A DNA stretch of 64,000 bases from an uncultured virus (IMG/VR IMGVR_UViG_3300025723_000029) (IMGVR_UViG_3300025723_000029); one strand, 5' to 3'; shown: positions 4,427 to 60,505, numbered from the stretch's first letter. The notes: generated by a model from the letters alone, not told the origin. Made by a program: numbers and translations.

Positions 4427-4669
4427 ATGCAGAACACACTATTACACAAATTTAGCATGAGCGATGTGGAAGATCCTTATCTGTATGCAGCCTTTCCCAT
4501 CAGCGAATGGCAACAGACCGACCACGGAAAGTGGGTGATGGAACATGTGCAAGACCAACCCACATTCTATTGCGAACCAGATCCGGCCACGCTGGGTTAC
4601 CGAGTGGCCATCTGGGGCAAATTGCATGATCAAGATGTGACCTATCTCAAACTCAAGTGGGGACGATGA
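4427..4669 (+). CDS. conserved hypothetical phage protein
   Basis: 80 aa; DVEDPxLYAAxPIxEWQQTxxGKWVMEH motif; ATGA overlap with the epimerase. Confidence 0.75.
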   Translation: MQNTLLHKFSMSDVEDPYLYAAFPISEWQQTDHGKWVMEHVQDQPTFYCEPDPATLGYRVAIWGKLHDQDVTYLKLKWGR

Positions 4670-5652
4670 ACATACTGGTAACCGGGGGACTGGGCTTTAT
4701 TGGGCACCATGTGGTCGAACTGCTGGAACAGCAGGGACACACAGTTGCCATCATGGACAACGAAACTGACTACGGCATTATAGCCCAGGATGAGTTATCT
4801 GCACTTGTGCGTGAGCGCAAACATAAAATTAAGACCAACAGCATATACTTTTGCGATGTGGCTGATCCAACGGCTCGACTGGCATTTGAGTTGTTCAAGC
4901 CCGACACAGTCATACACTTGGCCAGCTTTCCTAGACAAAAAGTAGTCAACGCCAATCCTACATTGGGCAGCAAAACCATGATCGAAGGATTACTTAATTT
5001 GCTTGAACTATCGGTCGAGCACAAAGTCAATAAGTTTGTTTATATCAGTAGCAGTATGGTGTATGGCAACTTTGACCATGCTTCACCGGCCGGCATTTCC
5101 GAAGATCATGTGACTCATCCCATAGGACAGTATGGAATCATGAAACTGGCCGGCGAATGGTTGGTACAGGACTATGCCAAACGCACCGGCATCCAATCCA
5201 TGATACTGAGACCCAGTGCTGTGTATGGACCCAGAGATGTCGAAGATCGAGTGATCAGCCGATTCATGCTGGCAGCCATGCGAGATCAGGTATTACAGGT
5301 CAACGGTGCTCAAGATGCATTGGATTTTACCCACGTGGACGATGCAGCTCGAGGCATAGTGCAGGCCACAATCAGCAATCGTACTGGAGTTTACAACATC
5401 ACTAGAGGTCGCAGCCGTAGCTTGTTGGAAGCAGCCGAACTGATCATACAACTGGTTGGATCGGGGCGCATACAGGTCAACAATCGCGACAACAGTTTCC
5501 CCAGTCGCGGTCAGTTAAATACAGCACGGGCCCGGGTGGTATTTGGTTTCGCACCATGTATTGATATCGAACAAGGATTTGAAAATTACCTACACTGGCT
5601 TGACGATTTCGTTCACCGGAATCAAAAAACAATACAACCAGATACGCACTGA
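4666..5652 (+). CDS. NAD-dependent nucleotide-sugar epimerase/dehydratase (extended SDR)
   Basis: ILVTGGLGFIG Rossmann motif, SSSMVYG, YGIMK (YxxxK), RPSAVYGP, DFTHVDD. Confidence 0.92.
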   Translation: MNILVTGGLGFIGHHVVELLEQQGHTVAIMDNETDYGIIAQDELSALVRERKHKIKTNSIYFCDVADPTARLAFELFKPDTVIHLASFPRQKVVNANPTLGSKTMIEGLLNLLELSVEHKVNKFVYISSSMVYGNFDHASPAGISEDHVTHPIGQYGIMKLAGEWLVQDYAKRTGIQSMILRPSAVYGPRDVEDRVISRFMLAAMRDQVLQVNGAQDALDFTHVDDAARGIVQATISNRTGVYNITRGRSRSLLEAAELIIQLVGSGRIQVNNRDNSFPSRGQLNTARARVVFGFAPCIDIEQGFENYLHWLDDFVHRNQKTIQPDTH

Positions 5653-6679
5653 AATCCTGGATGTGACCGACGAAGTTCTAAGATCGGGATCTCTCATGGA
5701 CAGCAACTACACAGCCGAATTTGAAAACTGGCTGGCCCGTCGCAACCATGTCAAATATGCAGTGACCTGCCACTCGGGCACACAGGCCTTGGAAATTTTG
5801 GCTGCTTGGAATCTAGAGCGCAATTTGATGTTTGATCCGCCACGTGTCTTGATACCTACCATGACCTATGTGGCCACAGCCAATGCATTTGCACGGGCTG
5901 GCTACGAGGTAGTGTTGTTGGACACTGACGGGCACGGACAAGCCGACTACAGAAAACTGGATCCAGGTCTTGATTGCCATGTAGAGGTCTTGGTTGGACT
6001 GTACGGCATGGCTCTGCCCGATAACGCTGGATCCAAGACCACAGTGGTGTTTGAAGATGCGGCACAGCATTGGCTCAGCGCCGACTCACGTCGGGTGGGC
6101 TTGGCAGCTGCCATCAGTTTTGATCCCATGAAGAATCTCAACTGTTACGGCAACGGTGGAGCCATAGTGACCAACAGTCTGGATATCATGCACTATGCCA
6201 GGTCCTGGCGCAACAACGGCAAACCTGATCACAGTGTGCCGGGTACCAACAGCAGAATGAGCGAGGTAGACTGTGCGCAGATGATGGTCAAGACACGATA
6301 CATTGATGCCTGGCAACAGCGTAGAGCTGTGATTGCGCGATACTGGATGGAACGTCTGGAACGCTCGGGCATACGCAGCCTGATTGACAAGGGCAACTTT
6401 GCCACGCATGCTTACCACAAGTTTGTGATCGAACTGGATCAACGAGATCAATTGCGACAGTATCTGGAAACCCACAAGATTGAAACCAAAATACACTACC
6501 AAACACCAGTACATGAAATGTCAGCTTACCGAGACTTCACTGGTCCTGATATCTTGAGTGCAGCATCAAGCCTGGCACGCAGATGTGTGAGCCTACCGCT
6601 TTATCCTGAGCTTGCCGACTTGGAAGTGGAATACATTATTGATACTGTGTTAAATTACGCTTCAACAAAGCATAACTAG
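5600..6679 (+). CDS. DegT/DnrJ/EryC1/StrS family PLP-dependent sugar aminotransferase
   Basis: SGTQALE, TYVATANA, EDAAQ, SFDPMKNL (PLP lysine), GNGGAI, SLPLYPEL; start uncertain (TTG 5600 chosen). Confidence 0.92.
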   Translation: MTISFTGIKKQYNQIRTEILDVTDEVLRSGSLMDSNYTAEFENWLARRNHVKYAVTCHSGTQALEILAAWNLERNLMFDPPRVLIPTMTYVATANAFARAGYEVVLLDTDGHGQADYRKLDPGLDCHVEVLVGLYGMALPDNAGSKTTVVFEDAAQHWLSADSRRVGLAAAISFDPMKNLNCYGNGGAIVTNSLDIMHYARSWRNNGKPDHSVPGTNSRMSEVDCAQMMVKTRYIDAWQQRRAVIARYWMERLERSGIRSLIDKGNFATHAYHKFVIELDQRDQLRQYLETHKIETKIHYQTPVHEMSAYRDFTGPDILSAASSLARRCVSLPLYPELADLEVEYIIDTVLNYASTKHN

Positions 6680-9038
6680 CCAACCAGGCCCAGTCGTAGC
6701 TTTTACGAAGCTCGTCAAAATTCCCACCAACTTCCTCATAGTATTCCACAGCATCTTGAGCACCCAAACTGCTCCACTGAGCATTGACTCCTGTGCCGTT
6801 GGCACACCAACGATTGAGTCGATATTGACTTTCTACATCATCACTGCCTTTTAGTTTCAACGCTTCACGAAACGCCGTACGCCATGCCATCCAGGGCGTA
6901 TGGGCATATTCGGCTGTGCCTGACAGTATTGGCACAACTTCGTGTGCCGAGTCTAGTGTAAAGTCTAAACCCACTCCAGGATTGTCTAACACCAATTGCT
7001 TGTTGTAGGCAATCATGGCCTGGTGACCATAAGTCAATCCATTTGTTGGATTGAATGCCTGGAAGATATAGTGTTTGGGCATCTGCATACGGTCCGGTTG
7101 CCACGACCAATCAAAATTCTTATTAACACGCAATTTGGCAAATACCGCAAAGAACCAAGGTGTCGCACTGAGTCGGGCTGCTGCATGGTAAGCAGCCACA
7201 CGCCCATTAACTCCGCTACTACGTTCTATGCGTTGGTTGGTAAACATATGGCAGTCGCCAAGATATTTCCAATTTTCTTCTGCGTTGGGTTCGCCGTTGT
7301 CAATGAACACTATGTCTAGTGGGTGATCCTGGCATACGCCGCGCTGTGAGCGGTCTATGTGCTTGTAATCGTACAACTGCGTGCGTATGCTGGCCTTGGC
7401 CACTCTAGGCACTACGACTGCACCGGCACCGGCCGACAGCGGTACTATGGTTTTGGTTTCACTGCGCCATAATGGTACAACCGGTATTCGATCGGGCGTG
7501 TCAGCCACTGTGAACAGGGCCAACGGGCCTAGCCAATCCTGTGTTTTGACTGCTGGCACATGCGAATCCAGATCATGCACGATTACAGGCATGGCTCGTC
7601 GTGGCACAGATCGATCAACAAAATTCACATCGTACCATTCCAGCAGCTGGCAGTTCTGGGCACGATCCACAAAGCTGGGCACATGCATGAAAAACGTGTC
7701 TCCAAACTTTTGATCATCGCTGGCAAACACATGCAACATGGAGGCTTGCCATTGTTCAGGATGCCAGGAAAAATCAAAGTCCCGATAGTCGCAGATGCTG
7801 GAACAGATCCACACAAATTCATGTTGGTGTTGTATATTTCGTGCCAGTCGCAACAGGGTGTCTAGATAATTGTCAAAATAGCGCACTGTCTTTGTGGTAT
7901 CTGGAATCTGTCCAGCATGACCGTCCAGGTGATCTATTTCGTAGATGGCAGTGGCCACACGTTCGGTACGTATGCGTATCTGATCCACAAACTTGATTTC
8001 GGTGGCGTCTGGCATCACATACCTAGGACCACCGGTCCTTTGATGTTGCGTACCAAACTGATAGATGTAGGGGTCATCTGTGTCATCTGGATGCCAGGTA
8101 AAATCAAATGAGTCGGTGTCGACTCCGTCGGGTATGGTCCATTTGTCCTGATCAACTGAAATCTTGGCAACCCGAGGCCGAGACACATACTTGATTGTGT
8201 CAGCGTCTGGCATCACATACCTAGGACCACCGGTCCTTTGATGCTGTGTACCAAACTGATAGATGTAGGGCGGGTCTCCTGGATCGGGACACCAGGTGAA
8301 ATCGAACGAGTCGGTGTCGACTCCATCCGGTATGGTCCATTTGACCTGATCTGGTATCAATTGAGCCCGTGGATGATTCATGTACTTGCGCTTGGTAGCA
8401 CCGGGCACATGATATTCCACAGTGGGCATTGTGACTGCCGGCCACCACTGATTGCCAAACACATAGATCAAGGGCGGGTCTCCTGGATCGGGTACCCAGC
8501 TGTAGTCCCATTCGCAGTCGTGCAGAGTATGCCAGTGATTGGTGTGACGTTCGGGCAATCGAGCACATGGGTCAAAAATGTATTTGCGCTCGGTAGCACC
8601 AGGCACATGATATTCCACAGTGGGCATGCGATTGGCTGGCCACCATTGATTGCCAAACACGTATTGATAAGGCGGGTCATGCGGATGCGGATGCCAGGTA
8701 CAGTCAAACTGCACACCTGATATTATGTTGTGGAAGTGGTCTGGCCTAGACTGATTGGGTATGATTTTGGTATGGAATTTGTACTCAACCTGTTGTACAT
8801 GTGTGGGTACCAGATAGGTGCCCGAGAACGCATGGTGCTGACTGGGCCAGGTGTGAGTGTATTGGCTTTCCCACGGCACTGGTTCAAATAAAAAATCGAA
8901 CCCAGTGTAGTCGCTTAAATAATTTATCCACCAAAAATATCTGGTCCTGCTCAATTGCCTGGCATGCTCAAGATCATGGGTTGCCCGCTCATGCACAAAC
9001 AGATTTGGTTTAACACCGGAATAGAATACATCAAACAT
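6636..9038 (-). CDS. multi-domain glycosyltransferase-like protein with internal ~66-aa repeats and a degenerate GT-A C-terminal domain
   Basis: C-terminal ~230 aa aligns by eye with 25581..26510 (DIVF.D..EP..EENW, GV.G..AA..AAA, NGL.YG, AWR..FRE..K); repeated (F/W)D(F/Y/W)xWxP motif. Confidence 0.75.
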   Translation of the reverse strand: MFDVFYSGVKPNLFVHERATHDLEHARQLSRTRYFWWINYLSDYTGFDFLFEPVPWESQYTHTWPSQHHAFSGTYLVPTHVQQVEYKFHTKIIPNQSRPDHFHNIISGVQFDCTWHPHPHDPPYQYVFGNQWWPANRMPTVEYHVPGATERKYIFDPCARLPERHTNHWHTLHDCEWDYSWVPDPGDPPLIYVFGNQWWPAVTMPTVEYHVPGATKRKYMNHPRAQLIPDQVKWTIPDGVDTDSFDFTWCPDPGDPPYIYQFGTQHQRTGGPRYVMPDADTIKYVSRPRVAKISVDQDKWTIPDGVDTDSFDFTWHPDDTDDPYIYQFGTQHQRTGGPRYVMPDATEIKFVDQIRIRTERVATAIYEIDHLDGHAGQIPDTTKTVRYFDNYLDTLLRLARNIQHQHEFVWICSSICDYRDFDFSWHPEQWQASMLHVFASDDQKFGDTFFMHVPSFVDRAQNCQLLEWYDVNFVDRSVPRRAMPVIVHDLDSHVPAVKTQDWLGPLALFTVADTPDRIPVVPLWRSETKTIVPLSAGAGAVVVPRVAKASIRTQLYDYKHIDRSQRGVCQDHPLDIVFIDNGEPNAEENWKYLGDCHMFTNQRIERSSGVNGRVAAYHAAARLSATPWFFAVFAKLRVNKNFDWSWQPDRMQMPKHYIFQAFNPTNGLTYGHQAMIAYNKQLVLDNPGVGLDFTLDSAHEVVPILSGTAEYAHTPWMAWRTAFREALKLKGSDDVESQYRLNRWCANGTGVNAQWSSLGAQDAVEYYEEVGGNFDELRKSYDWAWLASYALLKRNLTQYQ
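8005..8343. repeat. direct repeat pair, ~140 nt, 198-nt period
   Basis: gcgtctggcatcacatacctaggaccaccggtcctttgatg at 8005 and 8203; encodes KWTIPDGVDTDSFDFTW...YIYQFGTQHQRTGGPRYVMPDA twice. Confidence 0.9.
8383..8665. repeat. direct repeat pair, 198-nt period
   Basis: ggtagcacc(g/a)ggcacatgatattccacagtgggcat in units starting 8383 and 8581; encodes YVFGNQWWPA..MPTVEYHVPGAT.RKY twice. Confidence 0.9.
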
Positions 9039-9039
9039 A

Positions 9040-10146
9040 ATGATTAGAATAGACGAGATTTATAACAATACTGTTTGGCCTTGGTTAAAACAAAATCGAC
9101 CTGGCATGCGAGTTTTTTGTTGCACTCCATTTGGACGAAGTGATCCGAGCAGTGTGATTAATTATGGTCGGACCGACATATACGAACTTAATTATACATT
9201 ATTTTTTGATGTGCAACCAATTGATTTGGATATACACAGTGCCACCTTTGATGAAGTACAGCGAGGTAGGAGCCGAGACATACACCGTCGTTCTCAAGTA
9301 CCTGTTGGATCCATAGTCACCAGCGAAAAAGACAGTGACAGTGTGGCCGAGGTGTGCAAGTTATATAGATGGACCAGCTATTACTATTTCTTTTGGGGAT
9401 GGGCTAGCTTGGACTGGTACCGTGGCTACGACCGCACATTCTTGATAACGCCACCAGAACAACGTACCATCACTCGAACATTCCTGTCGCCCAATCGCAT
9501 AATTGGCGGCACCCGTCGCCACCGCCTGCTCATGCTGTATCACATTTTCAAGCGTGGCATGACCAACAACTGGTTCAGTTGTCCGGCAGTGTGTCCAGAC
9601 GAACATGTCAGTGTACACGACATGGTGCGCCAATTTTCCAACATATATCCAGACATAGAGACTGTGTTTGCTGAACAAACATTTCCCATTGCTTTTCCCA
9701 ACGAAACCGATGCACCCATGACTTCGTGCTGGTTGACTCTGTTTGAAGAAAGTGCCGACAGCTTGTTGTATCTGGTCACAGAAACAGTAGCTACCGGTCG
9801 TAGATTGCACCTGACTGAAAAATCTTTCAAACCCATTTGCATGCGTATGCCATTTATCATAGTTGGCACAGCCGGCAGCCTGCGTCATCTGCGCAGTTAC
9901 GGATTCAAAACATTTGGAGATCTCTGGGACGAAAGCTATGATCTTGAAACTGATGATGTGCGACGTGTTGAACGAATCGCCGACCTGTTGGAACAGTTGG
10001 ATTGCATGACTGTGACCCAAAAACAAGCCCTGTTCGATCAAGCCCGTCCTATCATAGAACACAACTACCAACATTTTTATCAAGGCGGATTTGAATCGGT
10101 GTTGTGGCAAGAACTTACTGCGATGCTGGAGTCCATGAGTGTTTAA
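9040..10146 (+). CDS. GT10-like (GT-B) putative glycosyltransferase, paralog 1
   Basis: LYLVTET...LTEKSFKP...PFIIVG...LRSYGFKTF...WDESYD resembles the fucosyltransferase E..TEK..P..G motif. Confidence 0.65.
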   Translation: MIRIDEIYNNTVWPWLKQNRPGMRVFCCTPFGRSDPSSVINYGRTDIYELNYTLFFDVQPIDLDIHSATFDEVQRGRSRDIHRRSQVPVGSIVTSEKDSDSVAEVCKLYRWTSYYYFFWGWASLDWYRGYDRTFLITPPEQRTITRTFLSPNRIIGGTRRHRLLMLYHIFKRGMTNNWFSCPAVCPDEHVSVHDMVRQFSNIYPDIETVFAEQTFPIAFPNETDAPMTSCWLTLFEESADSLLYLVTETVATGRRLHLTEKSFKPICMRMPFIIVGTAGSLRHLRSYGFKTFGDLWDESYDLETDDVRRVERIADLLEQLDCMTVTQKQALFDQARPIIEHNYQHFYQGGFESVLWQELTAMLESMSV

Positions 10147-11368
10147 TTTTGTTTTTGATCGGCGCAACGACAGCCGCCCATATCCCAATCTGGCACCCAT
10201 GATGGATAACCCACACGATACCTATCACGGCATGGGCGACACTTACCCACGTATAGCACCTTGTCGGTTGTTGTTGTACTGTGCCGATCATGGGTATCCG
10301 TGTGCTGTCGGCTATACGGACGAGCCGTTACCGCCCGATGCATTTTATCCAGTTGGTTTGGCCTGGTTTGATTATTCAATCGATTATTTTGCCATGATTC
10401 CGTCCTCTACCATGGCCCACATACAGGCTGGCCGGTTGAAAATATTGTTTTACTATCACGAAGGCGACAATCCTTTTCGAGAACGTGAGCGATTGGATAA
10501 CCTATGTGCCATGCACGGGTTAAGTGTGGATTCTTATCGATTTGTATCAGGTAATACTCAAGCAGACAGCATGGATCGTTTTGTATATTTTCCAGACCAC
10601 GAATTGTTCTACTGGCGCAACGGTGTGCGCTGGAACGGGCACGACCGTCCACGAGCCCAGGCACACGATCAGCCACGTGGCAGACAGTTCACCATGCTGA
10701 GTCGTATCCACAAATGGTGGCGTGCCACCATAGTCAGTCTATTCCACCAGCGGGGATTGCTGTCACAGGCCTACTGGAGCTACGGTGATGTCACTATAGG
10801 TGATCGATTCGAAGATAACCCGATACAGCTGAGTCGTTTCGCTGGCCTGGAATCTCGCATGCAAGAGTTTTTATCCGGTGGTCCTTATCGGTGTGATGAT
10901 CTCACTGCCGAAGAACACAACAGCCATTGGGTCTTGGCCGAATATCTTTATTCCGACAGCTATTGCAGTTTTGTGATGGAAACTCTGTACGATGCCGAGC
11001 AAAGCGGTGGCGCTTTTATAACTGAAAAAACATTCAAGGCCATATTGAATGCGCATCCTTTTGTGATATTTGGTTGTCCAGGCACTTTGGCTATCTTGCG
11101 AAAATTGGGCTATAGGACCTTTGACACATACCTAGATAACTCGTACGATGCAGAAAACCACAATACAGAAAGATTCATCCGGACCATGAATACTGTGCAA
11201 CACCTGCTGAGTCTTGATCTACACGCATGGTATCAACAGTGCTTGCCAGATATCTTGCACAATCAAGCCTTGTTTGTGTCAAGCAAATACGATCGCTTGC
11301 ATGAGCTCAGCTGTAAACTTTTATCCTGTACAGGCGTTCAAATCGATCAGCATCTGCTCGATCATTGA
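10139..11368 (+). CDS. GT10-like putative glycosyltransferase, paralog 2
   Basis: SFVMET...FITEKTFKA...HPFVIFG...LRKLGYRTF...DNSYD; GTG start. Confidence 0.65.
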   Translation: MFNFVFDRRNDSRPYPNLAPMMDNPHDTYHGMGDTYPRIAPCRLLLYCADHGYPCAVGYTDEPLPPDAFYPVGLAWFDYSIDYFAMIPSSTMAHIQAGRLKILFYYHEGDNPFRERERLDNLCAMHGLSVDSYRFVSGNTQADSMDRFVYFPDHELFYWRNGVRWNGHDRPRAQAHDQPRGRQFTMLSRIHKWWRATIVSLFHQRGLLSQAYWSYGDVTIGDRFEDNPIQLSRFAGLESRMQEFLSGGPYRCDDLTAEEHNSHWVLAEYLYSDSYCSFVMETLYDAEQSGGAFITEKTFKAILNAHPFVIFGCPGTLAILRKLGYRTFDTYLDNSYDAENHNTERFIRTMNTVQHLLSLDLHAWYQQCLPDILHNQALFVSSKYDRLHELSCKLLSCTGVQIDQHLLDH

Positions 11369-12758
11369 CCATGGGTTCGCCTCGTATATTAAGGCTAGTG
11401 TTGAGTAGCAGAGGACAATCGGTTGCTTTATACCAAGCTTCTAACAGTCGTCTAATGCCCGAATTTCCCGGGGGCACAGTTTGAACACGACTGGTTCCAT
11501 CACGGTGGACAATGGCAGGATAAAGATCAGGACGTAGGCATCGTGCCACGACCTGCATGTAACCGGTATCTACCCAGCCTTGGGGCATGTCAAAATAACT
11601 ATCAACATGTTCGGCCAAAATAATCGGAGCAAACGGGCGGAATTGTTGTCTACGCTTGATGGCATTGACCAGATCTTTTATGTCCGTTCCTCGTGGATCC
11701 GCGAGGAGACTTCGGTTGCCCAGTGCCCGCGGCCCAAATTCTGCCGCTCCAGATGCAACACCACAGAGTCTATCAACCAGTAGACTGTGGACAACGGCAT
11801 CAACAGGATACTGGCCGTCAATGATGTGACCCAGGTATGCATGTTCAAATTGGATTCTTCCTCGGTGGGCCAAGGCTGCTGCACCAAGACTGCTACCACC
11901 ATCGCCAGGACAAGGCATGATCCAAATCTTTTCAAAGTACTCATCCAATCTCCTATTGGCCAAACAGTTGAGGGCAACACCGCCCGAATATACCAAATTT
12001 GAACTCCACCCAAACGCTTGAGCTTGACGCATGATCGTATATATCATATTTTCGCAAACTTGTTGCGCACTGGCGGCAATATCCTCATCTCGGGCCGATT
12101 CTAGGAAATTTGGATCCAGACCTGCATGTAGATTTTGATCGGTCAACTTGGTCAGCTCGGCTGTGTATCTGGGTTGACCCCAGGCGGCCATGCCCATGGT
12201 GATGTATTCTTCATCCATGGGGTGCAGGCCCAATCGATCAGTCACGGCACTGTAAAACAGTCCTATACTGCGCGGATAGCGTTGTCGCCACAGTCTGCGA
12301 TATCGAGCACGACCACGATCGTAGTCAGCGGCCCATATGGTCGCAGTGTCCCATTCACCTACCGCATCAATCACGACCACAGTGGCGCGATCAAATGGGC
12401 TGGTCTGGAATCCACCGGCTGCATGACTGAGATGATGATCATGTGTGCTGACAGGAACGCCCGGAAAATGACCCTGTAGTTGTTTTCGCATGATCTGTCG
12501 CGCTGTGAGTTTTGACCACTCAACGCCTTGTCCGCTGTAGAACTGTCGAATCTGTTTGAGCCACGGTCGTTCGTAATAGGCTATGTGGTCAATGTGTCGG
12601 CCGCGGGCCAGGTCCTGGATCAGGTCAGCATGTATGTCAGGATCATTTTTGCGTTTGCTATAACGCTCGCTGTGTCCGGCAAACAAGATCTTGCCTTGTG
12701 CGTCGATTACTGATACCGTGGCATCATGGAATCCGGCACTAATTCCCAAGATGTTCAT
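11307..12758 (-). CDS. O-carbamoyltransferase (NodU/CmcH/TobZ family)
   Basis: ILGISAGFHDA, ERYSKRK, HHLSHAA, DAVGE, MGMAAWG, GGVALNC, EFGPRALGNRS, FRPFAP, DGTSRVQTV, LLNTSLN..GEP. Confidence 0.95.
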   Translation of the reverse strand: MNILGISAGFHDATVSVIDAQGKILFAGHSERYSKRKNDPDIHADLIQDLARGRHIDHIAYYERPWLKQIRQFYSGQGVEWSKLTARQIMRKQLQGHFPGVPVSTHDHHLSHAAGGFQTSPFDRATVVVIDAVGEWDTATIWAADYDRGRARYRRLWRQRYPRSIGLFYSAVTDRLGLHPMDEEYITMGMAAWGQPRYTAELTKLTDQNLHAGLDPNFLESARDEDIAASAQQVCENMIYTIMRQAQAFGWSSNLVYSGGVALNCLANRRLDEYFEKIWIMPCPGDGGSSLGAAALAHRGRIQFEHAYLGHIIDGQYPVDAVVHSLLVDRLCGVASGAAEFGPRALGNRSLLADPRGTDIKDLVNAIKRRQQFRPFAPIILAEHVDSYFDMPQGWVDTGYMQVVARCLRPDLYPAIVHRDGTSRVQTVPPGNSGIRRLLEAWYKATDCPLLLNTSLNIRGEPMVNDRADADRFERLYRIKVYS

Positions 12759-13383: not shown

Positions 13384-13481
13384 TTGTATATAAATGGATC
13401 GCGTTTGCGCAATTCCCGAAGCTTTCGACGATAGCGTATTTCCAGTCGTATGCGATTGTAAATATTTTTTATCCAAGACAT
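13380..13481 (-). CDS. 33-aa basic peptide, SxtK/DUF5989-like carbamoyltransferase companion
   Basis: MSWIKNIYNRIRLEIRYRRKLRELRKRDPFIYK; PFIY C-terminus; fills the gap with overlaps on both sides. Confidence 0.55.
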   Translation of the reverse strand: MSWIKNIYNRIRLEIRYRRKLRELRKRDPFIYK

Positions 13482-21656: not shown

Positions 21657-22708
21657 GCTACCACTTCCTGTATGCGTTGCAATATAATTTGATCGGTCTT
21701 GTGCGCAAATACCAGCTCGTGGTTGTGTTGTATCTCTTTGATGTGATCATAATAAAAATTTTCAATCCAGTCTCGACCCCGAGCAACCACATCCACGATG
21801 GCCTGGATTCGATCCAATGTACCAAGATCGTCGAACCCTGCAGGTGTAAGATCTGACATGACTTCAAATCCTAGTCCTTGTAGATAGGCAGTGTGTCCCC
21901 GAGCAGCCAGATACAAAGGAATTTGTCCACTCACAAACGGCTTGTGACTTTTTTCGCTTATTTCAGGAAGATTGATATCAAGATTGTATGGTATGCGTCC
22001 AGTTGTGGCTTCGGTCAAGATATTACAGTAAGTGTTGATCTCGGCGTCGTGATACACGCAATGCTGATTTTGTATCGCTTGATTTTGCCATTTGATCGGC
22101 AACAGTCGCAAGTATTCGTACCAACCCAGAACAGAATCTAGTATACCAGGATCTTCATTGCACTGTGGATCTATGCAACCAGCTGGATATACCGGATTGG
22201 TGTGACACATCGCTTGCGTGTTGTTTTGCGTGAATATCATCTGATCCAGCAATCCGCGATTGTTCAGCGCCGTTCCCAACAATAAACGATGCAGAGCCGG
22301 ACGATTGTTCAGGCACCCAAATCCGCGTGGTAACTGTTTGGGCTTGATACGGAATTCGCGCAAGCCAGGAGATTGCCGATATTGGCTATGACGGTTTAGA
22401 TACCAACTGGGATAACTGAGTCGCCAACAGTTGTGCCCCAAATACTGATTTTGATAAGTCTGTGTTTGCAAGAATACCAGTTTGTCTTTCAGTACCGGGT
22501 GATCAAAGATTTCCTGTTCTTGTTCATAGTTGTGCCAATGATCCACTGTGGACAGGATCATGCTGTCGAATGCTGTGTCCAGAGACGAAAGAGTATCCAA
22601 CAGTTCATTGTGGCTCAATGCAGTGATATCTAAAAAACATTTGCGGGCGCCTGGCAATAGATTGACCAAAGGGTCAAAATCCAGTATGCCTATCTTATGT
22701 TTTGGCAT
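21653..22708 (-). CDS. GT10-like putative glycosyltransferase, paralog 5
   Basis: CLNNRPALHR; YCNILTE...ISEKSHKPF..GQIP...LGFE. Confidence 0.6.
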   Translation of the reverse strand: MPKHKIGILDFDPLVNLLPGARKCFLDITALSHNELLDTLSSLDTAFDSMILSTVDHWHNYEQEQEIFDHPVLKDKLVFLQTQTYQNQYLGHNCWRLSYPSWYLNRHSQYRQSPGLREFRIKPKQLPRGFGCLNNRPALHRLLLGTALNNRGLLDQMIFTQNNTQAMCHTNPVYPAGCIDPQCNEDPGILDSVLGWYEYLRLLPIKWQNQAIQNQHCVYHDAEINTYCNILTEATTGRIPYNLDINLPEISEKSHKPFVSGQIPLYLAARGHTAYLQGLGFEVMSDLTPAGFDDLGTLDRIQAIVDVVARGRDWIENFYYDHIKEIQHNHELVFAHKTDQIILQRIQEVVA

Positions 22709-24110
22709 GATACCCGCACTCGTTCCACCAGCTGGCCATTTCAGGAAAGGTTGTCAAAAAATCTGTGCCATGTCTGCGATCAGCTTCCGTAAAAAACCTA
22801 TAAAAGTCGGCCTTCTGTTGATTGATGTAGGCCGGATCCAGCTTCTGTCCATCACGCATCCAGGCTATGTCTCGATCCAGACGGGCCAGTTCATAATCCT
22901 TGAATCCTTGGAAGCGTGTGGATTCGGTTTCGGCCTGCTTGCTCATCCAGACCCATAAACGTTCCAGTTGATCACAATAGCTTTCGGGCAGAATCTGCAG
23001 GCTTTGCCAGGCAGGTTCTCGCAAGACCGGAGTGTCAAACCACACACGCTGATAGGTGGTGCTGTACAGTTTCCTAAGACCCAGGATGCCGGCCATGAGA
23101 CTGCCCAGTCCAGTGACTGACAAGTTGTTCATGGTCACGATGAACGTGATACTGTTACGACCTGGTATCTCGGTCAAGAACTGGTTTACCCGATCCCATA
23201 ACAGATTGAAGTCCAGTCCGTGTCTGATATATTCGGCCTGTGGCCCCCACGAGTCTAGACTCACATATTGCATGAAGTGTTCGACGTTTTCGCCAGCGCA
23301 GATCTGTTTGACAGCAGTCTTGTAGCGTTGCCATGACCGTTCGTCTACACTGAAGTTGGATGTCACATTGAGATGCAGATCTGGTTTGGGATTGGCCAAC
23401 ACATAATCAAACACCCGATAGGTATTGCGATCCAGCATGGGCTCGCCGCCGGTCATACGGAAATGTTTCAGCTCAGGATACAGGTTTGGCCACCAAGACC
23501 AGAAGGCGTCGACGTATGGATTGGCTTCTCTTGCAGGTATAGGGCGATTACGGCCAACAAAATGACTAGAATCATTGTGAATCGTTGATGTAGGATACCC
23601 TCCCCAACGTTCCACCTCTTGCGCCCAGGTGCTGCTAAATTGTGGGCTACAATAACTACAAGAAAGATTGCAGGCATGATTAAAATTAACTTCAACATAA
23701 CTAGGAACAATGTCATCTTCATCTCCGGTTGAATGCATTATCTTTTCAAAATCCATGGCAGCCCAGGATTCACCGGATCTATAGTGACGGTCACTTAATT
23801 TGCCAGCATCTTCCATGCTCCAACAATAGCTGCATTCTGCAGGACGTTCTTGTTTGAGCATGATCTTGCGCTGAGCTTTTTTGTATGGTGTATTGTGCAA
23901 GGTTGCAGGATTGCCTGCCAATAATGTAGAATCTATAGCATGCAAGGGCGGATGATAACAGCTATTGTTTAGGCCGGTGGGCAAGTGCAAGCTGACCTGT
24001 TTCCATTTGGCCAAGCACAAACCCGTACCCAGAGCTTTGTGCATGTGTTCAGCACTGTCTAGGAATCCGCTTTTGAACTCGGCTGTGACTTCGTCACCTT
24101 TGTTGGTCAT
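22695..24110 (-). CDS. radical SAM enzyme, CxAKW/SCxHP subtype (RS-1)
   Basis: CLAKW...SCYHP...CSYCW, CNLSCSYC, MTGGEPM. Confidence 0.92.
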   Translation of the reverse strand: MTNKGDEVTAEFKSGFLDSAEHMHKALGTGLCLAKWKQVSLHLPTGLNNSCYHPPLHAIDSTLLAGNPATLHNTPYKKAQRKIMLKQERPAECSYCWSMEDAGKLSDRHYRSGESWAAMDFEKIMHSTGDEDDIVPSYVEVNFNHACNLSCSYCSPQFSSTWAQEVERWGGYPTSTIHNDSSHFVGRNRPIPAREANPYVDAFWSWWPNLYPELKHFRMTGGEPMLDRNTYRVFDYVLANPKPDLHLNVTSNFSVDERSWQRYKTAVKQICAGENVEHFMQYVSLDSWGPQAEYIRHGLDFNLLWDRVNQFLTEIPGRNSITFIVTMNNLSVTGLGSLMAGILGLRKLYSTTYQRVWFDTPVLREPAWQSLQILPESYCDQLERLWVWMSKQAETESTRFQGFKDYELARLDRDIAWMRDGQKLDPAYINQQKADFYRFFTEADRRHGTDFLTTFPEMASWWNECGYHAKT

Positions 24111-25060
24111 GGTATAGGATTGATACTGTTGGTATAAGTTTGATTATACAGCAAATTGTAGTTATGATCAAGAGAATACTGCATGTCCCAGTACATGCGT
24201 TCAAGTTCGTCCTTGGATTTTTGTGCCAAGCTGTCAATCAGATACAATATTCTAACGAATCGCTCTCGACCCTCGTAGCCGTCGTAGTCTTCGTTCCAGA
24301 AATCTGCAAATGTCCTGAATCCCATGCGACGCAGATATAACAAATAGTTTTTGGATCCAAATATAATAAATGGTTTTTTTAACATCATGGGTCTCACAGT
24401 CTTCTCTGTTACAAAAAAACAATCACCGTCGGTGAAGGTTTCTGCCACAATGTCGATCAAAAAATCTGCATAAACACGCTTGGTCTGTGATATATAACCG
24501 TCGGTATTTTGTTGTCCGGGCGTATATCTGTCTAGATTTTCGAGCAACATAGGAAACTGTTGCCAGTTACTGGAAAATTTTTGCAAACTGTCAGGATCAT
24601 GCTGGAACAACTGAGACACCTCAAATAATTCTCTGTCGTCGGCCTCGCCAGTATTGGCACGACAGCCTATTAGACTCAACTGGCGATGATGCACTAACAA
24701 ATGCGATGCGATGCCAATCCTGTGCCAGAGAGGTCGACCATATATGGTTCCAAAAATTCTGTGCTTGTTCCAACAATGATACCGATCTTCTATTGCAGTC
24801 GATACAGATAAAAAATTCCATTGTCTTGTCAATTTGATTTGATAATGATCATGCTGTTCAACCGGATTGCTAGTAACTATTGTGACCGATTGAAACCGAA
24901 ACTTATCTAATAGATCATATAACCCAATCGCACGGCAACAACAGCCTTCTGAATTGGTTGTCAATACTATATCGCGTTGTTGATTCTGGACCAGGAAATC
25001 AATTAGTTCTAGCTGATTCCAAATGTAATTGCTGGCCGGAATGATGTCAAATTTTGTCAA
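24107..25060 (-). CDS. GT10-like putative glycosyltransferase, paralog 6
   Basis: YGRPLWHR; IDIVAET...FVTEKTVRP...KPFIIFG...LRRMGFRTF..FWNEDYD; TTG start. Confidence 0.65.
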   Translation of the reverse strand: MTKFDIIPASNYIWNQLELIDFLVQNQQRDIVLTTNSEGCCCRAIGLYDLLDKFRFQSVTIVTSNPVEQHDHYQIKLTRQWNFLSVSTAIEDRYHCWNKHRIFGTIYGRPLWHRIGIASHLLVHHRQLSLIGCRANTGEADDRELFEVSQLFQHDPDSLQKFSSNWQQFPMLLENLDRYTPGQQNTDGYISQTKRVYADFLIDIVAETFTDGDCFFVTEKTVRPMMLKKPFIIFGSKNYLLYLRRMGFRTFADFWNEDYDGYEGRERFVRILYLIDSLAQKSKDELERMYWDMQYSLDHNYNLLYNQTYTNSINPIP

Positions 25061-25578
25061 ATCAAAAATCCCGAAACCTGCAAGGTGTATTTGTGATGCA
25101 TACCAGCATTGGCCGAAAGATGCAGGACCTGGTTATCCCATAGTAACACGTCACCAGCGTTCCAGTGCGTATGTACTACATCGTTGTATTGTATAAAATG
25201 CCCCAGTTTCCAATCTTCGAGGTGTATGTTGGCCCGTACTTTTAATTCCGAACGATCAGGATAGCGTTGGTTGATTTGAAAAAAGGTATCTCGATGTATG
25301 GGAATCATACATCCCGGCGGCTGTTGTATGCTGCTGATAGTAATAACTTCCATCCCCAGTTGGCAACCAATTTGATCAAAGTCCAATTGAGTTGAATTCC
25401 ACCATAGTTGGTGAATCATGGTGTTTTCTAGACAATAAGATTGCGGAAAACCCCCATACTGTTCATGTATATCGTTCACTTCGTATATTTGATGCTTGAT
25501 ACAACTACCAGTATGCTGGCTGTAATCAGCCGACAATATTTCAGCGAAATCGTAATTTAGTTTTAATTTTTTAATCAC
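25057..25578 (-). CDS. 2OG-Fe(II) oxygenase / cupin-fold hydroxylase
   Basis: PPGCMIPIHRD (HxD) ... W...HLSAN (distal His) ... LQVSG; GTG start. Confidence 0.7.
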   Translation of the reverse strand: MIKKLKLNYDFAEILSADYSQHTGSCIKHQIYEVNDIHEQYGGFPQSYCLENTMIHQLWWNSTQLDFDQIGCQLGMEVITISSIQQPPGCMIPIHRDTFFQINQRYPDRSELKVRANIHLEDWKLGHFIQYNDVVHTHWNAGDVLLWDNQVLHLSANAGMHHKYTLQVSGFLI

Positions 25579-25580
25579 GG

Positions 25581-26510
25581 CTACCAGCCTTCCTGTTGTC
25601 GTATTATATCAATCTCTCTGACCATGACTCCGCGATTGTGCCAATTGCTGAGATAGTGTTGTTTGAAGAATGCACTTTCGCCTGGTCCCATCATGTTGAT
25701 CGGTAAATCCAGCTGGGTGACCAAGTCTTCGGCCACACGTCCGGCCAGGATCTCGGGGTCCGAATCTTTCACTGTGTGCCATAATTTTTCCAAAGCATCA
25801 AAATCCTGCACAGTTCGATAATCCCAGGCGGGCGTGATCATGGTCATGTAGGTGCCCATCCTGGCACCGGCCATGGCCCAGATACCGTGTTCCACATCGC
25901 GACCCACGTTGTGCCATACAGTCAAATGGTCCAGATTTCTGTGATGCACACGATCCTGGAATTCGGCTATGCTGGGTCTACGCCCTTGATCCAGGCACAT
26001 TTTGACGCCTTCTCTAAATCCGGCACGCCAGGCATGGAATGCCGATCCGTTGGGATAGGTAGTGCTGTAGCAATCGTGCATGGCCCAGTATTGTGGATCA
26101 AAACAAAACTCCACTTGGGTTTCGGTACGGCCATCTGTGGCTTCGTGAGTCTGCATGGTGTTTGCAAAAGTTCGTGTCCACGAACTGAGTCCGCCGTTGC
26201 CGTACATGAGACCATTTACGTGATTTCTAGCACGCCAACGAAACACTGCCGATTCCCACTCGGCAGTGGGCAACTCCAGAGTAAGATTGAAAAAACTTTC
26301 ATCCGGCATGTTGTCGCCATCGATCAAGACAAATCGTTCGGTGTTGCTGGCCTCTGCTGCGGCCTTGTGTGCAGCGTCCGATCCTTTGACTCCGTCTACT
26401 CGACGAGCCCACGGAATCTGGTTGCGTATGCGTGCCCAGTTTTCTTCGCGGTCGGGTTCGTCGTAGGTGAGAAAAATACAATCAAGATCAGCTATGTCAA
26501 TACGTTTCAT
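25581..26510 (-). CDS. GT-A fold (GT2-like) glycosyltransferase
   Basis: IFLTYDEP, VDGVKG..AAHKAAA, FVLIDGDN (DxD), NGLMYGNGG; ATG 26510 by ATGA overlap. Confidence 0.75.
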   Translation of the reverse strand: MKRIDIADLDCIFLTYDEPDREENWARIRNQIPWARRVDGVKGSDAAHKAAAEASNTERFVLIDGDNMPDESFFNLTLELPTAEWESAVFRWRARNHVNGLMYGNGGLSSWTRTFANTMQTHEATDGRTETQVEFCFDPQYWAMHDCYSTTYPNGSAFHAWRAGFREGVKMCLDQGRRPSIAEFQDRVHHRNLDHLTVWHNVGRDVEHGIWAMAGARMGTYMTMITPAWDYRTVQDFDALEKLWHTVKDSDPEILAGRVAEDLVTQLDLPINMMGPGESAFFKQHYLSNWHNRGVMVREIDIIRQQEGW

Positions 26511-26842
26511 CTCAAACTCCATTTCTTGTGTGGTCGGTCTTGGGTGACCACCACACATATATCTCTAGGATCGCAGGCTGTTCCTGAATCTTCGGGTTGT
26601 AATCTTGGTGGTGCTGGTCGCTGCAAATACTGTATAATTCCATCCTGTATGCGTAGATTGAAAGATCCTGCGTGCCATACATCAACGTCAAGTTCTATAT
26701 AATTACCGGGCAGATGTTCCTGGCTGTAGAAAAGCGGAACTCCTGCATCATCATAGTACAATCTATATACCGGCACCGGCGGTTCGTGATCTCGCAATCG
26801 TTGTAGGCTGCGCCAGAAGTCTTGTTCAGTCAGTTCAGTCAC
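26507..26842 (-). CDS. hypothetical protein
   Basis: ~111-aa ORF (GTG 26842 or ATG 26860); YRLYYD...LPGNYI. Confidence 0.7.
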   Translation of the reverse strand: MTELTEQDFWRSLQRLRDHEPPVPVYRLYYDDAGVPLFYSQEHLPGNYIELDVDVWHAGSFNLRIQDGIIQYLQRPAPPRLQPEDSGTACDPRDICVVVTQDRPHKKWSLR

Positions 26843-27608
26843 GGAATGCCTCTTTGACATGATAATGTACCAGTCCCCATTGGGCCACGGTGTTGATGCG
26901 CAATCCGGGCATGGTCTGCTCGGCTACCAGTTCTTGGGTCCAATCGTCACCAAGCAGTCCGATCATGTGCTGTTTCATATGCACTATGCTGGGACCCAGA
27001 CCTGCGGGCAACATGACCGACTCGGGACCCAGTATCACAGCAGCCATGGCATAGACCACGTCGGTGGTAGGAGCCTCGTCGGCAAATTTCAAAACACGTC
27101 GGTAACTGGCCCAGTTTTCAAATATGTCACGCACCGTGGCAAAAAATTGTCGGGCTGGTCTACTCACACGCCAGTAGGTCACAGCATTGTACACATCTGG
27201 CAAATGATTCTGATCAAATATCTTTCTGTAAGATCTGGACTGCGCCGGCTGATCATACAAATTTCTACATCCACGGCTGATCACCACATCTCGTAACTCA
27301 AAAAGATTCCACCAATGATCAATTGGACCTGCACACCACATGTCGGCTTCCAGCTTGATGGTCTGTCGATAAGGGCTGGCGTCAAAGCATTGCCAATCGT
27401 TGACGTATCCTTCAAGATCGCCATGCGGCAATGGAATCACATGATCAAATACCGGATCACTGCATCGATTTACTGTGATGACCGAAATGTTGGCCGACGG
27501 ATGCCATTGTCTAATAGATCGTGCCAATTGCTGGGCACAGGCCACATAGTCCACAGATTCAGTGTTGATGGCCGGTATAAGATAGCCGCGTTCAGCAAGG
27601 ATTGGCAA
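26835..27608 (-). CDS. GT-A fold (GT8-like) glycosyltransferase
   Basis: GYLI.A.N...DY..CA..LA.SI, SPY..TIKLEAD, late VHMK. Confidence 0.7.
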   Translation of the reverse strand: MPILAERGYLIPAINTESVDYVACAQQLARSIRQWHPSANISVITVNRCSDPVFDHVIPLPHGDLEGYVNDWQCFDASPYRQTIKLEADMWCAGPIDHWWNLFELRDVVISRGCRNLYDQPAQSRSYRKIFDQNHLPDVYNAVTYWRVSRPARQFFATVRDIFENWASYRRVLKFADEAPTTDVVYAMAAVILGPESVMLPAGLGPSIVHMKQHMIGLLGDDWTQELVAEQTMPGLRINTVAQWGLVHYHVKEAFRD

Positions 27609-28395
27609 CTATGTCTCCTAGGTATCGTTTGCCCATGGCATGGAAATCAGTCGCAAGCGTGATCCAGCGGGCATGGTTGTCCGAGGTCTTCCAGTCCACT
27701 CGGTACCGATCTTGCGACAGCTGGCTCAATTGATGCTGGTGTGTCACTGTGGCCAGCTTCCAGGGGATACTGGTGTTGGTCTGCACGTGACCATTGACCA
27801 CACCCAAGGCCATGCTCAAGGCAAAATCATTGCGATAGTTTGAATCAACAATGCCGTACACAGCACGATAATGATCCCAGTTGTCTCGAATCATGCCCAT
27901 GGTTTCAAATATCAATCCGACATGATCGCTGCGCCGAAAACACATGACTGTGGCCCAGGTCATGGGATTGTGATAGCGTCCAAAACAGTTGAGTTCATCA
28001 AAATTGTCTCGTCCGGTCACGTCGTAGGCCAGATCGTGTGCTACAAAGTCCTGGCGACTGTCGAACAGGCAGGCCAACTGATCGCTGGTCACCACATAAT
28101 CGGCGTCCAGGACCAAGGTAGTATCGTAGGGCGACAGCTCGTAGGCCGACATCCTGTTGCCGTTGTACCAGGGTACTGTACGATCAAGATCGGCAAAGTA
28201 CCTGGTGGCAGTGCCCGATCTGGTGGCCTGTATGACCTGATCAAATTGGTAAGACTCAGGAACATGATCGCAATCAGTTATGACTGTGACCGGCACAGCC
28301 AGGTGTCGGTGTATGTTGTTGGCGCTCCATGCGGCCAAGGCCATATAGTCCAGCTGATCTGAATTGTAGGCAAATATCACAACACCCTGGGTCAT
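27592..28395 (-). CDS. GT-A fold (GT8-like) glycosyltransferase
   Basis: GVVIFAYN...DY..LA, SPYDTTLVLDADY (DxD), RNDFALS, FHAMGK; ATG 28395 by ATGA overlap. Confidence 0.75.
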   Translation of the reverse strand: MTQGVVIFAYNSDQLDYMALAAWSANNIHRHLAVPVTVITDCDHVPESYQFDQVIQATRSGTATRYFADLDRTVPWYNGNRMSAYELSPYDTTLVLDADYVVTSDQLACLFDSRQDFVAHDLAYDVTGRDNFDELNCFGRYHNPMTWATVMCFRRSDHVGLIFETMGMIRDNWDHYRAVYGIVDSNYRNDFALSMALGVVNGHVQTNTSIPWKLATVTHQHQLSQLSQDRYRVDWKTSDNHARWITLATDFHAMGKRYLGDIVANPC

Positions 28396-28697
28396 CGATT
28401 TTGATTCAGCTGTTCGTGTTCGATCAACCAAGCCGTCATTTGTTCTTGCCAGCGTTGTTGACTCAATGTCATCAGCTCTCGGGTTTGGACCTTGACCGGT
28501 GTTTCATACAAATCCAGCAACACTGCTTCTGTGTCGGGACAGGTCAACAATGTGTTTTGTAACTCAGGACCAGCACGCCACATGCCGCCCTGATAGGCAA
28601 AAGTCATACGACCTTGATATTTTTCTTTGAGAGTCCTGCGTGCAGCCGCATGTTCAAATCTTGTGCGGCCATGTGCGATCAAATTGTCAGTGTCCAT
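28392..28697 (-). CDS. hypothetical protein, first gene of the modification operon
   Basis: 101 aa starting MDTDN at the predicted +1 of the upstream promoter. Confidence 0.75.
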   Translation of the reverse strand: MDTDNLIAHGRTRFEHAAARRTLKEKYQGRMTFAYQGGMWRAGPELQNTLLTCPDTEAVLLDLYETPVKVQTRELMTLSQQRWQEQMTAWLIEHEQLNQNR

Positions 28698-28703
28698 ACA
28701 TGT

Positions 28704-28732
28704 ATTATACACTACATGATTGTATTTGCCAA
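28704..28732 (-). promoter_or_regulatory. sigma70-type promoter heading the minus-strand modification operon (probably leaderless)
   Basis: TTGGCA-N17-TATAAT, 6 nt before ATG 28697. Confidence 0.7.
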
Positions 28733-60504: not shown

Positions 60505-60505
60505 C

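Follow-up and report, generated by a model that had tools for sequence, protein, structure and literature searches.

Glycans that viruses build for their own particles are known from several lineages. The virion glycosylation clusters for the Mimivirus fibril, the chlorovirus capsid, and the capsids and tails of mycobacteriophages (O-glycosylation) combine virus-encoded short-chain dehydrogenase/reductase (SDR) and aminotransferase genes with glycosyltransferases (GTs), whose products are used on the virus's own structural proteins. To our knowledge, a radical S-adenosylmethionine (SAM) enzyme or a carbamoyltransferase is found in none of these systems. The locus considered here lies in a 64,000-nucleotide (nt) stretch of DNA from an uncultured virus (IMG/VR IMGVR_UViG_3300025723_000029), called "the window" below. 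It is a block of 23 open reading frames (ORFs; g01–g23), each at least 114 amino acids (aa) long, packed within positions 4657–28736. It appears to be a form of virus-encoded glycan biosynthesis, set apart by radical SAM enzymes of the NCBIfam family NF033640 (five in the block, 6–10 genome-wide) and by an unannotated family of predicted GT-B fold. Compared with the virion glycosylation clusters, its acceptor is proposed from gene context, and its GT-B family has no Pfam model.

Two further phage systems bear comparison. In Aeromonas phage 332-Vera, according to PMC12390700, eight radical SAM genes lie within the structural gene cluster that also includes tail-fiber genes, an arrangement like the present one. 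No Aeromonas phage record was matched when the radical SAM proteins of the block were used as tblastn queries, so the 332-Vera genes may belong to a different family, or that phage may lie outside the collection searched. In PMC8670742, carbamoyltransferases of contigs with unmodified DNA are flanked by glycosyltransferases, and the pairing of a carbamoyltransferase with a thymidylate-synthase homolog is reported only for contigs with modified DNA. The phage 5-hydroxymethylcytosine (5hmC) carbamoyltransferase described there has the same Carbam_trans_N and Carbam_trans_C pair as g06 of the block, but its system co-occurs with thymidylate-synthase homologs, whereas five near-complete relatives have no ThyA-family match and the neighbors of g06 are GT-B genes.

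The reading tentatively preferred here, at somewhat less than an even chance, is that the block is a conserved cytosolic pathway that uses host nucleoside diphosphate (NDP)-sugars to build a glycan, tailors it by radical chemistry, and decorates the adjacent Thr-rich fiber proteins. Domain identities, the GT-B fold of g04, paralogy, synteny, and the absence of alternative entry enzymes were established computationally. In the initial annotation of the window, made from its sequence alone, the block was counted as 24 contiguous, mostly overlapping genes. Contiguity and overlap were borne out (20 of the 22 junctions within g01–g23 overlap, using longest-ORF starts, and the other two are gaps of 1–2 nt), but 23 ORFs were found. 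The block is co-oriented and overlapping with fiber and baseplate genes, which directly adjoin it, so its annotated abutment to the tail module also stands. The ORFs are as follows.

4657..5652, + strand: g01, extended SDR of NDP-sugar epimerase/4,6-dehydratase type (Pfam Epimerase)
5543..6679, + strand: g02, DegT/DnrJ/EryC1 sugar aminotransferase (Pfam)
6636..9038, - strand: g03, 800 aa, N-terminal repeats and C-terminal g19-like domain (sequence, hhalign)
9040..10146, + strand: g04, GT-B fold glycosyltransferase-like, family A, core (AlphaFold model)
10139..11368, + strand: g05, family A paralog, core (BLAST)
11307..12758, - strand: g06, NodU/CmcH/TobZ-type carbamoyltransferase (Pfam, PHROG)
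12739..13566, - strand: g07, SGNH/GDSL hydrolase, accessory (Pfam Lipase_GDSL_2)
13469..14521, - strand: g08, conserved, predicted cyclophilin-like beta-barrel with inserted four-helix bundle (model)
14502..15833, - strand: g09, N-terminal-twitch radical SAM (NF033640, 284.6 bits)
15781..16731, - strand: g10, family A paralog, accessory (BLAST)
16724..17929, - strand: g11, N-terminal-twitch radical SAM (NF033640, 336.3 bits)
17926..19188, - strand: g12, N-terminal-twitch radical SAM (NF033640, 380.3 bits)
19169..20506, - strand: g13, N-terminal-twitch radical SAM (NF033640, 289.9 bits)
20499..21656, - strand: g14, family A paralog, core (BLAST)
21653..22708, - strand: g15, family A paralog, accessory (BLAST)
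22695..24110, - strand: g16, N-terminal-twitch radical SAM (NF033640, 291.1 bits)
24107..25060, - strand: g17, family A paralog, accessory (BLAST)
25057..25578, - strand: g18, small cupin-like, possibly 2-oxoglutarate (2OG)-Fe(II) oxygenase, accessory (sub-cut-off Pfam)
25581..26510, - strand: g19, highly conserved, enzyme-like, LIDGDN (DxD) motif, suspected GT-A (motif)
26507..26860, - strand: g20, conserved 117-aa protein (orthologs)
26835-27608, - strand: g21, LEADM/LDADY motif pair with paralog g22, suspected GT-A (motif, BLAST)
27592-28431, - strand: g22, LEADM/LDADY motif pair with paralog g21, suspected GT-A (motif, BLAST)
28392..28736, - strand: g23, conserved 114-aa protein (orthologs)

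All five radical SAM proteins called at the outset (g09, g11, g12, g13, and g16) match NF033640 well above its cut-off (284.6–380.3 bits against 170) and at full length, from model positions 1–4 to 386–398 of 398. The twitch (half-SPASM) domain precedes the radical SAM core: in g12, Pfam assigns residues 32–97 to SPASM and 136–278 to Radical_SAM, and the order is the same in g09 and g11. In BtrN, by contrast, the twitch domain is C-terminal. The CxxxCxxC motif (C140/C144/C147), GGEP, and four N-terminal cysteines (C32/C50/C93/C96) are invariant in an alignment of the five. The paralogs are only 20–32% identical to one another by BLAST (g13 and g16, 32%), but each mostly has its own orthologs at 47–86% identity in related phages, so that the duplications predate the clade and each copy has been retained. 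NF033640 matches over cut-off number 10, 6, 10, and 7 in the near-complete relatives G003–G006, with exactly five in the block each time, and there are none in 14 control genomes. Mutual divergence, separate conserved orthologs, and this constant number, all sequence comparisons, point to five non-redundant functions.

Family A, the unannotated family, comprises g04, g05, g10, g14, g15, and g17. These match one another at BLAST E values of 6e-16 to 2e-6, mainly in the C-terminal part (g05 matches g04, g10, g14, and g17 at 1e-12 to 1e-10), and have invariant E...(T/S)EK residues in common. The C-terminal, putatively donor-side half is conserved and the N-terminal, putatively acceptor-side halves are divergent. 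None of the six matches any Pfam model at E ≤ 10, Glyco_transf_10 included, and a PDB sequence-profile search with the family returned only the unrelated ywmB (E 0.0028). At least 4470 metagenomic homologs were found at E ≤ 0.001 among 8000 candidates scored, and among the 120 matches listed none carries a Pfam domain. BFVD contains 22 uncharacterized proteins that match g04 at E ≤ 1e-6; the source is given as "uncultured Caudovirales phage" for 21 of them and as a Mimivirus for the other. In A0A6J5TB28, a 788-aa uncultured-phage protein of that collection, a family A domain is joined with the N-terminal domain of a UDP-glucose/GDP-mannose dehydrogenase.

An AlphaFold model of g04 from 46 sequences (pLDDT 91.4, pTM 0.90) is a GT-B fold with two Rossmann-like domains. 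Compared with 997 Foldseek-ranked chains, it scored 10.8 with BGT, 10.4 with FucT, 10.1 with AGT, and 10.0 with Rumi; Foldseek alone matched it to GT4-type enzymes at E ~1e-3. In the model, then, the nearest structures are tied: T4 BGT, T4 AGT, Helicobacter FucT, and POGLUT1, of families GT63, GT72, GT10, and GT90. With this four-way tie, "GT10-like", the label first given to the six paralogs, is one of four tied readings; their paralogy and, for the g04 model, a GT fold were upheld, while the GT10 assignment was not. FucT, the GT10 member, ties structurally with g04 but has no counterpart in the Pfam or PDB profile searches above, and T4 BGT and AGT are just 8–9% identical to g04 in sequence. 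The predicted fold suggests sugar transfer by family A, although a shared fold is not proof of function.

Most of the enzymes expected to supply or modify the sugars were assigned with little ambiguity. The SDR g01 matches Pfam Epimerase at E 8.6e-44 (150 bits against a cut-off of 20.9); its top NCBIfam models are RmlB and GalE, each under its equivalog cut-off. The aminotransferase g02 matches DegT at E 7.9e-53 (180.4 bits against 19.8) from residue 33 on, and its real start probably lies downstream of 5543. Among NCBIfam models PseC scores highest, with 130 bits where 423 are required, and no equivalog cut-off was reached. Both domains of the carbamoyltransferase g06 are over cut-off (Carbam_trans_C, E 1.5e-43, 148.7 bits against 27; Carbam_trans_N, E 4.1e-37, 128.8 bits against 24), and it matches PHROG 1601 at E 2e-85. 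With 121.7 bits against a NodU equivalog cut-off of 1000, it belongs by sequence to the NodU/CmcH/TobZ family but is not NodU itself. The SGNH hydrolase g07 passes marginally (Lipase_GDSL_2, 34.3 bits against 32.9). These four calls of the initial annotation were confirmed, but not that of g18 as a 2OG-Fe(II) oxygenase: its matches to Asp_Arg_Hydrox (E 0.046, 14.0 bits against 22.6) and PhyH (E 0.049, 14.3 bits against 22) are below cut-off, as weak as those in two of four orthologs, leaving the HxD...H pattern visible in its sequence as support. A GT-B fold in one paralog family, four sugar-tailoring families (SDR, DegT, carbamoyltransferase, SGNH), and the occurrence of NF033640 among sugar and GT genes in Vibrio phage K566 and several bacterial clusters agree with the glycan theme proposed from the start, and the block probably builds an unusual glycan. 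A search of open-access papers and bioRxiv found no characterized pathway of such composition, as had been surmised.

The remaining genes of the block are less easily placed. The most conserved is g19, at 70–83% identity in 80 of 80 loci. It is represented in the ESM Atlas from residue 17, where a neighboring cluster (score 0.99) is automatically named "Glycosyltransferase 2-like". It has no Pfam match, and a PDB profile search with it gave nothing relevant; one of 14 orthologs matches Glyco_tranf_2_3 weakly (E 0.036), and when it is compared with a genuine GT2 by hhalign the DxD region aligns, but at a probability of 1%. The paralogs g21 and g22 (BLAST E 1.7e-7) likewise have no Pfam match, orthologs included. 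Profile queries of the PDB with them returned nothing but NleB, aligned over the DxD at E 0.34, and hhalign against two GT8 proteins of K566 gave probabilities of 4.3% and 0.1%. From their sequence motifs g19, g21, and g22 are suspected GT-A enzymes; the outright call of three GT-A enzymes made initially was not confirmed, its only support being DxD-type motifs and an automatic cluster name.

The N-terminal part of g03 consists of tandem repeats of the type W-x-PDPGDPPYIY-x-FGNQ, visible in the sequence, and residues 573–761 match the g19 family (hhalign probability 94.5%, E 8e-8) but are missing the DGD motif. The initial label of pseudo-GT would thus apply to it only on condition that g19 is itself a GT. 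Searches of Pfam, PDB, and the ESM Atlas assigned g03 to no family; the ESM Atlas gave only unnamed viral clusters, and its own model there has a pLDDT of 0.62. Lengths of ~600 to 1784 aa among selected orthologs suggest that the repeats have expanded, and several orthologs have spurious sub-threshold LAG1-DNAbind matches at the repeat. The structure of g08 was confidently predicted to be a cyclophilin-like barrel into which a four-helix bundle is inserted, with middling Z scores, and no solved chain spanning both barrel and bundle was among those listed by VIA-wide and Foldseek searches. Identification of g08 as a 2OG oxygenase or a GT was considered and was rejected on the basis of this modeled fold. 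PDB sequence-profile searches with g03, g08, g19, and g21/g22 gave nothing significant, and g20 and its orthologs have no Pfam family match. When 108 orthologs of the genes lacking annotation were scanned with Pfam, all matches were sub-threshold apart from Peptidase_G2 in orthologs of g25, a fiber gene beside the block.

The window itself is phage DNA, from a T4-type jumbo myovirus. Its ORFs match a gp6-like baseplate wedge protein (PHROG 10646, E 2e-275), gp25, a gp5-like hub, and the late sigma factor gp55, and PHROG and Pfam scans also found gp47/gp46 and ThyX. The gp6 homolog is 33–35% identical to those of Rak2-like phages and Atu_ph07, and the tail module has no megablast match in the phage collection. 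Related IMG/VR records are 337–353 kb long, with CheckV completeness of 95–100% and direct terminal repeats in three; the clade is one of widespread, uncultivated T4-type jumbo phages of ~340 kb.

Conservation of the block was followed through two IMG/VR scans, one with the g04 family (first set; at least 435 relatives among at least 605 matched stretches) and one with g19 (second set; 599 of 600 matched stretches were relatives). From each, 80 loci were kept, three of them the window's own phage (99–100% identity), leaving 77 non-identical ones, and genes were counted by tblastn at E ≤ 1e-5; the counts are limited by 10 kb flanks, by contigs that end early, and by best-hit labeling, which may swap paralogs. 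In the 77 non-identical loci of either scan the block is collinear, with the same order and strands, rather than scattered, the outcome that a synteny survey had been proposed to distinguish. In the first set g01 was found in 67 of 80 loci, g02 in 64, g03 in 78, g04 in 80, g05 in 70, g06 in 79, g08 in 73, g09 in 73 (54–76% identity), and g11 in 70. In the second, g13 was found in 66, g14 in 68, g16 in 74, each of g19–g23 in all 80 (g20 at 33–48% identity), and the neighboring genes g24, g25, and g26 in 79, 77, and 75. Accessory genes are rarer: g07 is present in 9 of 80, g10 in 25, g17 in 23, and g18 in 8, and g15 in one of 80 in the first set and in three of 80, the window's own phage, in the second.

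At the scale of whole genomes, relatives have 4–11 family A matches per near-complete genome. The five that are 95–100% complete have no match to the ThyA family (PF00303; the control search matched 10 of 14 genomes), to TGT/DpdA, to the NDP-sugar nucleotidyltransferase family NTP_transferase, to UbiA, or to DHQ_synthase. No PhyH match over cut-off was found in relatives' genomes, and Tet_JBP is absent from all five members of a set made up of the near-complete G003–G006 and a 15%-complete fragment (G001). Within the block and its neighbors (g01–g26), Kyte-Doolittle hydropathy stays below 1.6 in every segment except for a marginal 1.62 in g21, so that the block proteins show no convincing membrane segment.

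The neighbors that bear on the acceptor, and a second group of sugar genes farther along the window, are as follows.

28757..29722, - strand: g24, Thr/Gly/Ala/Ser-rich, candidate glycan acceptor or fiber (composition, position)
29741..30976, - strand: g25, fiber protein with C-terminal intramolecular-chaperone (Peptidase_G2-type) domain (PHROG, Pfam)
31808..45043, - strand: 4411-aa virion structural protein (PHROG 10938)
59971..62753, + strand: second sugar islet, between gp47 and gp46 (GC, BLAST)

Position and composition (T 23%, G 12%, A 12%, S 9%, no Cys) suggest a structural role for g24. The g25 protein matches PHROG virion and tail-fiber families, and one of eight orthologs scanned has Peptidase_G2 at 29.5 bits against a cut-off of 25. 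Directly upstream of the fiber genes and the enzyme block, on the same strand, is the gene for the 4411-aa virion protein (PHROG 10938, E 9e-284), which has an FG-GAP repeat and contains 6–14% T and 5–12% S along its length. The second islet has a GC content of 0.34 and holds a stop-split seventh family A gene (ORFs 59971–60504 and 60506–61081), an SDR (61085–62050), and a GDS-motif protein (62037–62753). ORF 60506–61081 has the family A motif and matches family A genes of related loci. The islet SDR is 58–63% identical to SDRs of bacterial clusters with radical SAM genes and a UbiA-GT4-GDSL fusion gene (see below), and the islet has the appearance of having been acquired recently, from a cluster of Bacteroidota type.

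The sequence TAAATA occurs 21 times in the window (raw count), six times 8–80 nt upstream of a same-strand start. The genes so preceded are gp55, g07, g25, gp6, gp25, and one for a 610-aa virion protein, g07 being the only one in the enzyme block. With positions such as 31014, 48492, 48899, and 57823 on the - strand and 57830 on the + strand, TAAATA(C), placed 10–38 nt ahead of the starts of these six genes, may be a candidate shortened T4-type late promoter.

From these genes we infer substrates, an order of steps, and an acceptor. NDP-sugars would be drawn from the host, since the phage has no nucleotidyltransferase gene of its own. Some of them would be turned into amino or deoxy sugars by the SDR and the DegT enzyme, and the three core and three accessory GT-B paralogs would add sugars one at a time. 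Each of the five radical SAM enzymes would have its own tailoring step on the sugars (oxidation, epimerization, C-C or C-methyl chemistry), and the carbamoyltransferase would O-carbamoylate a sugar hydroxyl. The most likely acceptors would be the phage's own distal fiber proteins g24 and g25, perhaps also the 4411-aa protein; g19, g21, and g22 adjoin them.

Outside this clade NF033640 was also looked for in deposited phages and in genome contigs. The only deposited phages to match are Vibrio phages K566 and K567, with four copies apiece, Ralstonia phage RsoM2USA, with two, and a single marine single-virus fragment. In K566 two GT8 genes, which score 32.6 and 47.4 bits where the cut-off is 24.3, are interspersed among the four copies. 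A scan of genome contigs queried with three of the radical SAM paralogs gave 399 relatives among 619 matched stretches, of which 77 loci were kept, mostly from Bacteroidota, Bdellovibrionota, Elusimicrobiota, and Polyangia. Unlike the block, the K566 locus has no homolog of family A, g08, g19, or g21/g22, and hmmsearch with these profiles also found none at E ≤ 1e-3 among ORFs of the bacterial loci L165–L238. Pfam was run on 100 ORFs of 11 loci (leaving out L210, a near-duplicate of L190) and on 59 ORFs of five further regions. NF033640 lies beside sugar genes (DegT, SDR, GT2, GT4, RmlC-like, PIG-L) in L174, L201, L215, L169, L200, and L241. Its association with glycan genes is thus recurrent but not universal.

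Three of the 77 loci (L162–L164) bear phage-type copies of block genes. Two of them, L162 and L163, are contigs of phage origin, 148 and 183 kb long, that were assigned to a Haliscomenobacter sp. metagenome-assembled genome (MAG), with 12 and 17 block genes at identities of up to 76%; this is either a weak hint of a host in the Saprospiraceae or bin contamination. Taken with the Bacteroidota-type SDR of the islet, it suggests that hosts may belong to the Saprospiraceae or other Bacteroidota. A recurrent bacterial cluster (L174, L201, L215, and 13 other loci) has a UbiA-GT4-GDSL fusion (~1070 aa), two or three PhyH dioxygenases, an SDR, a DegT gene, sometimes a WelO5-like enzyme, and one to three NF033640 genes. 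Such clusters, in Bacteroidota and Henriciella, have NF033640 (1–3), SDR, DegT, GDSL, a GT-B enzyme, and PhyH-type oxygenases in common with the block, but they include a UbiA prenyltransferase, which the phage lacks, and have no family A, g08, or g19 homologs. Bdellovibrionota-type MAGs have seven or eight NF033640 genes each (L166/L239 in G007, C41:68210–80077; G008; G009). In one Bacteriovoracaceae MAG eight are in a single run, with a 320-aa ORF between two of them; the run matches all five phage paralog types (28–50%) and lies beside obg and lgt, with no glycosyltransferase detected. A 1106-aa open frame in L242 (12099–15419; G009, C41) seemingly fuses two NF033640 units and TPR repeats.

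Virion glycosylation fits the position and orientation of the block, its Thr-rich neighbor, and the 332-Vera precedent, but is unproven, and a number of observations weigh against it. No computed result points to the identity of the acceptor. The mild preference for virion glycosylation expressed in the initial annotation is compatible with the data (no clear membrane segments, missing entry enzymes, co-orientation with fiber genes, a neighbor with 23% Thr). The GT-A identity of g19, g21, and g22 is likewise unproven, and two T4 DNA glucosyltransferases are among the closest solved structures to g04, tied with FucT and POGLUT1. No paper on NF033640 or the N-terminal-twitch family, and no characterized member, was found in the literature searched. 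Among the 77 genome loci, 60 have a single NF033640 copy (the other 17 have two to eight), and sugar genes are missing both from single-copy loci in unrelated contexts (L190, L203, L231, L212, L204) and from multi-copy ones (L240, L242, L243, L166/L239). Bacterial NF033640 often travels with the UbiA-GT4-GDSL membrane protein (16 of 77), and PagP-like and LpxC genes flank the cluster in K566. As to expression, TATAAATA occurs once in the window, at chance level, and sigma-70 and terminator scans of the window were also at chance level.

The UbiA-GT4-GDSL company and the K566 flanks speak for lipids or glycans of the envelope instead of virions, and the alternative that survives best, though unlikely, is remodeling of the host envelope. 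A host lipid-linked glycan, lipopolysaccharide, or capsule would be modified in infection, for instance so that superinfection is prevented or the cell surface altered, by enzymes acting at the cytoplasmic face on host polyprenyl-linked intermediates. Besides UbiA-GT4-GDSL, the genes near NF033640 in the 77 loci include PhyH (12), SDR (6), and WelO5 (4), as well as ABC-2 exporters, and the window's second SDR, that of the islet, resembles those of the UbiA-GT4-GDSL clusters as noted above. UbiA itself, however, is absent from the near-complete relatives, the block proteins have no clear membrane segment, and Pfam scans of the window ORFs found no flippase, polymerase, or exporter family. Phage surface-modification genes are also usually variable, whereas the block is a collinear core beside fiber genes in 77 loci per scan, not a variable islet.

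Less probable again is a mixed maturation of virion proteins, in which the radical SAM enzymes would modify the proteins themselves (cross-links, epimerization, formylglycine-type oxidation) and the GTs would glycosylate the same proteins. Most characterized SPASM/twitch enzymes act on peptides or proteins, the block adjoins fiber genes, and sugar genes are missing from some bacterial NF033640 loci; the radical SAM genes in the structural cluster of 332-Vera are also in keeping with this. On the other hand, NF033640 is repeatedly accompanied by DegT, SDR, and GT genes, across two phage lineages and a number of bacterial loci, and no precursor-peptide-like or RRE-bearing gene was noticed, although no search aimed at them was made.

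The set of DegT, twitch radical SAM, TobZ-type, and GT-B genes recalls aminoglycoside pathways (BtrS, BtrN, TobZ), and a free small molecule, aminoglycoside-like or some other carbamoylated pseudo-oligosaccharide acting on the host or on competing phages, could account for it. This seems improbable: a cyclitol-forming synthase is missing, with no DHQ_synthase-type (2-deoxy-scyllo-inosose synthase-like) match in the five near-complete relatives. Pfam scans of the window ORFs revealed neither an exporter family nor one for self-resistance, and the fiber-adjacent position and the conservation of the block would be left unexplained.

Hypermodification of phage DNA, with the GT-B paralogs glycosylating DNA at an attachment point created or tailored by the radical SAM enzymes and carbamoyltransferase, is the least probable of the alternatives: ThyA, TGT/DpdA, and Tet_JBP are missing from the relatives as described above, among them the ThyA-family hydroxymethylase needed to make hydroxymethylcytosine DNA, the substrate of the T4 glucosyltransferases, FucT and POGLUT1 score level with BGT and AGT, and SDR and DegT point to NDP-sugar chemistry. 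A GT-flanked carbamoyltransferase, as here, is moreover the arrangement reported for unmodified contigs in PMC8670742, and the missing entry enzymes together with that pattern lower this reading. Just as improbable is a version in which radical SAM C-H chemistry makes the DNA attachment points directly, without hydroxymethyl-pyrimidine, TET, or 7-deazaguanine entry, and the BGT/AGT-like GT-B, amino-sugar, and carbamoyl enzymes build a tailored oligosaccharide on them; if true, this would open a new way to hypermodify phage DNA.

Three uncharacterized families dominate the block: NF033640, the family A GT-B proteins with their thousands of metagenomic homologs, and g19. If the preferred reading of a radical-tailored, carbamoylated amino-sugar glycan on the virion is true, it would represent a new viral glycan chemistry and a source of radical SAM carbohydrate enzymes, and would give a function to an N-terminal-twitch family that is present in many Bacteroidota and Bdellovibrionota. 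Because Vibrio phages K566 and K567 and Ralstonia phage RsoM2USA carry the family and have named hosts or isolation sources, the question is experimentally accessible.

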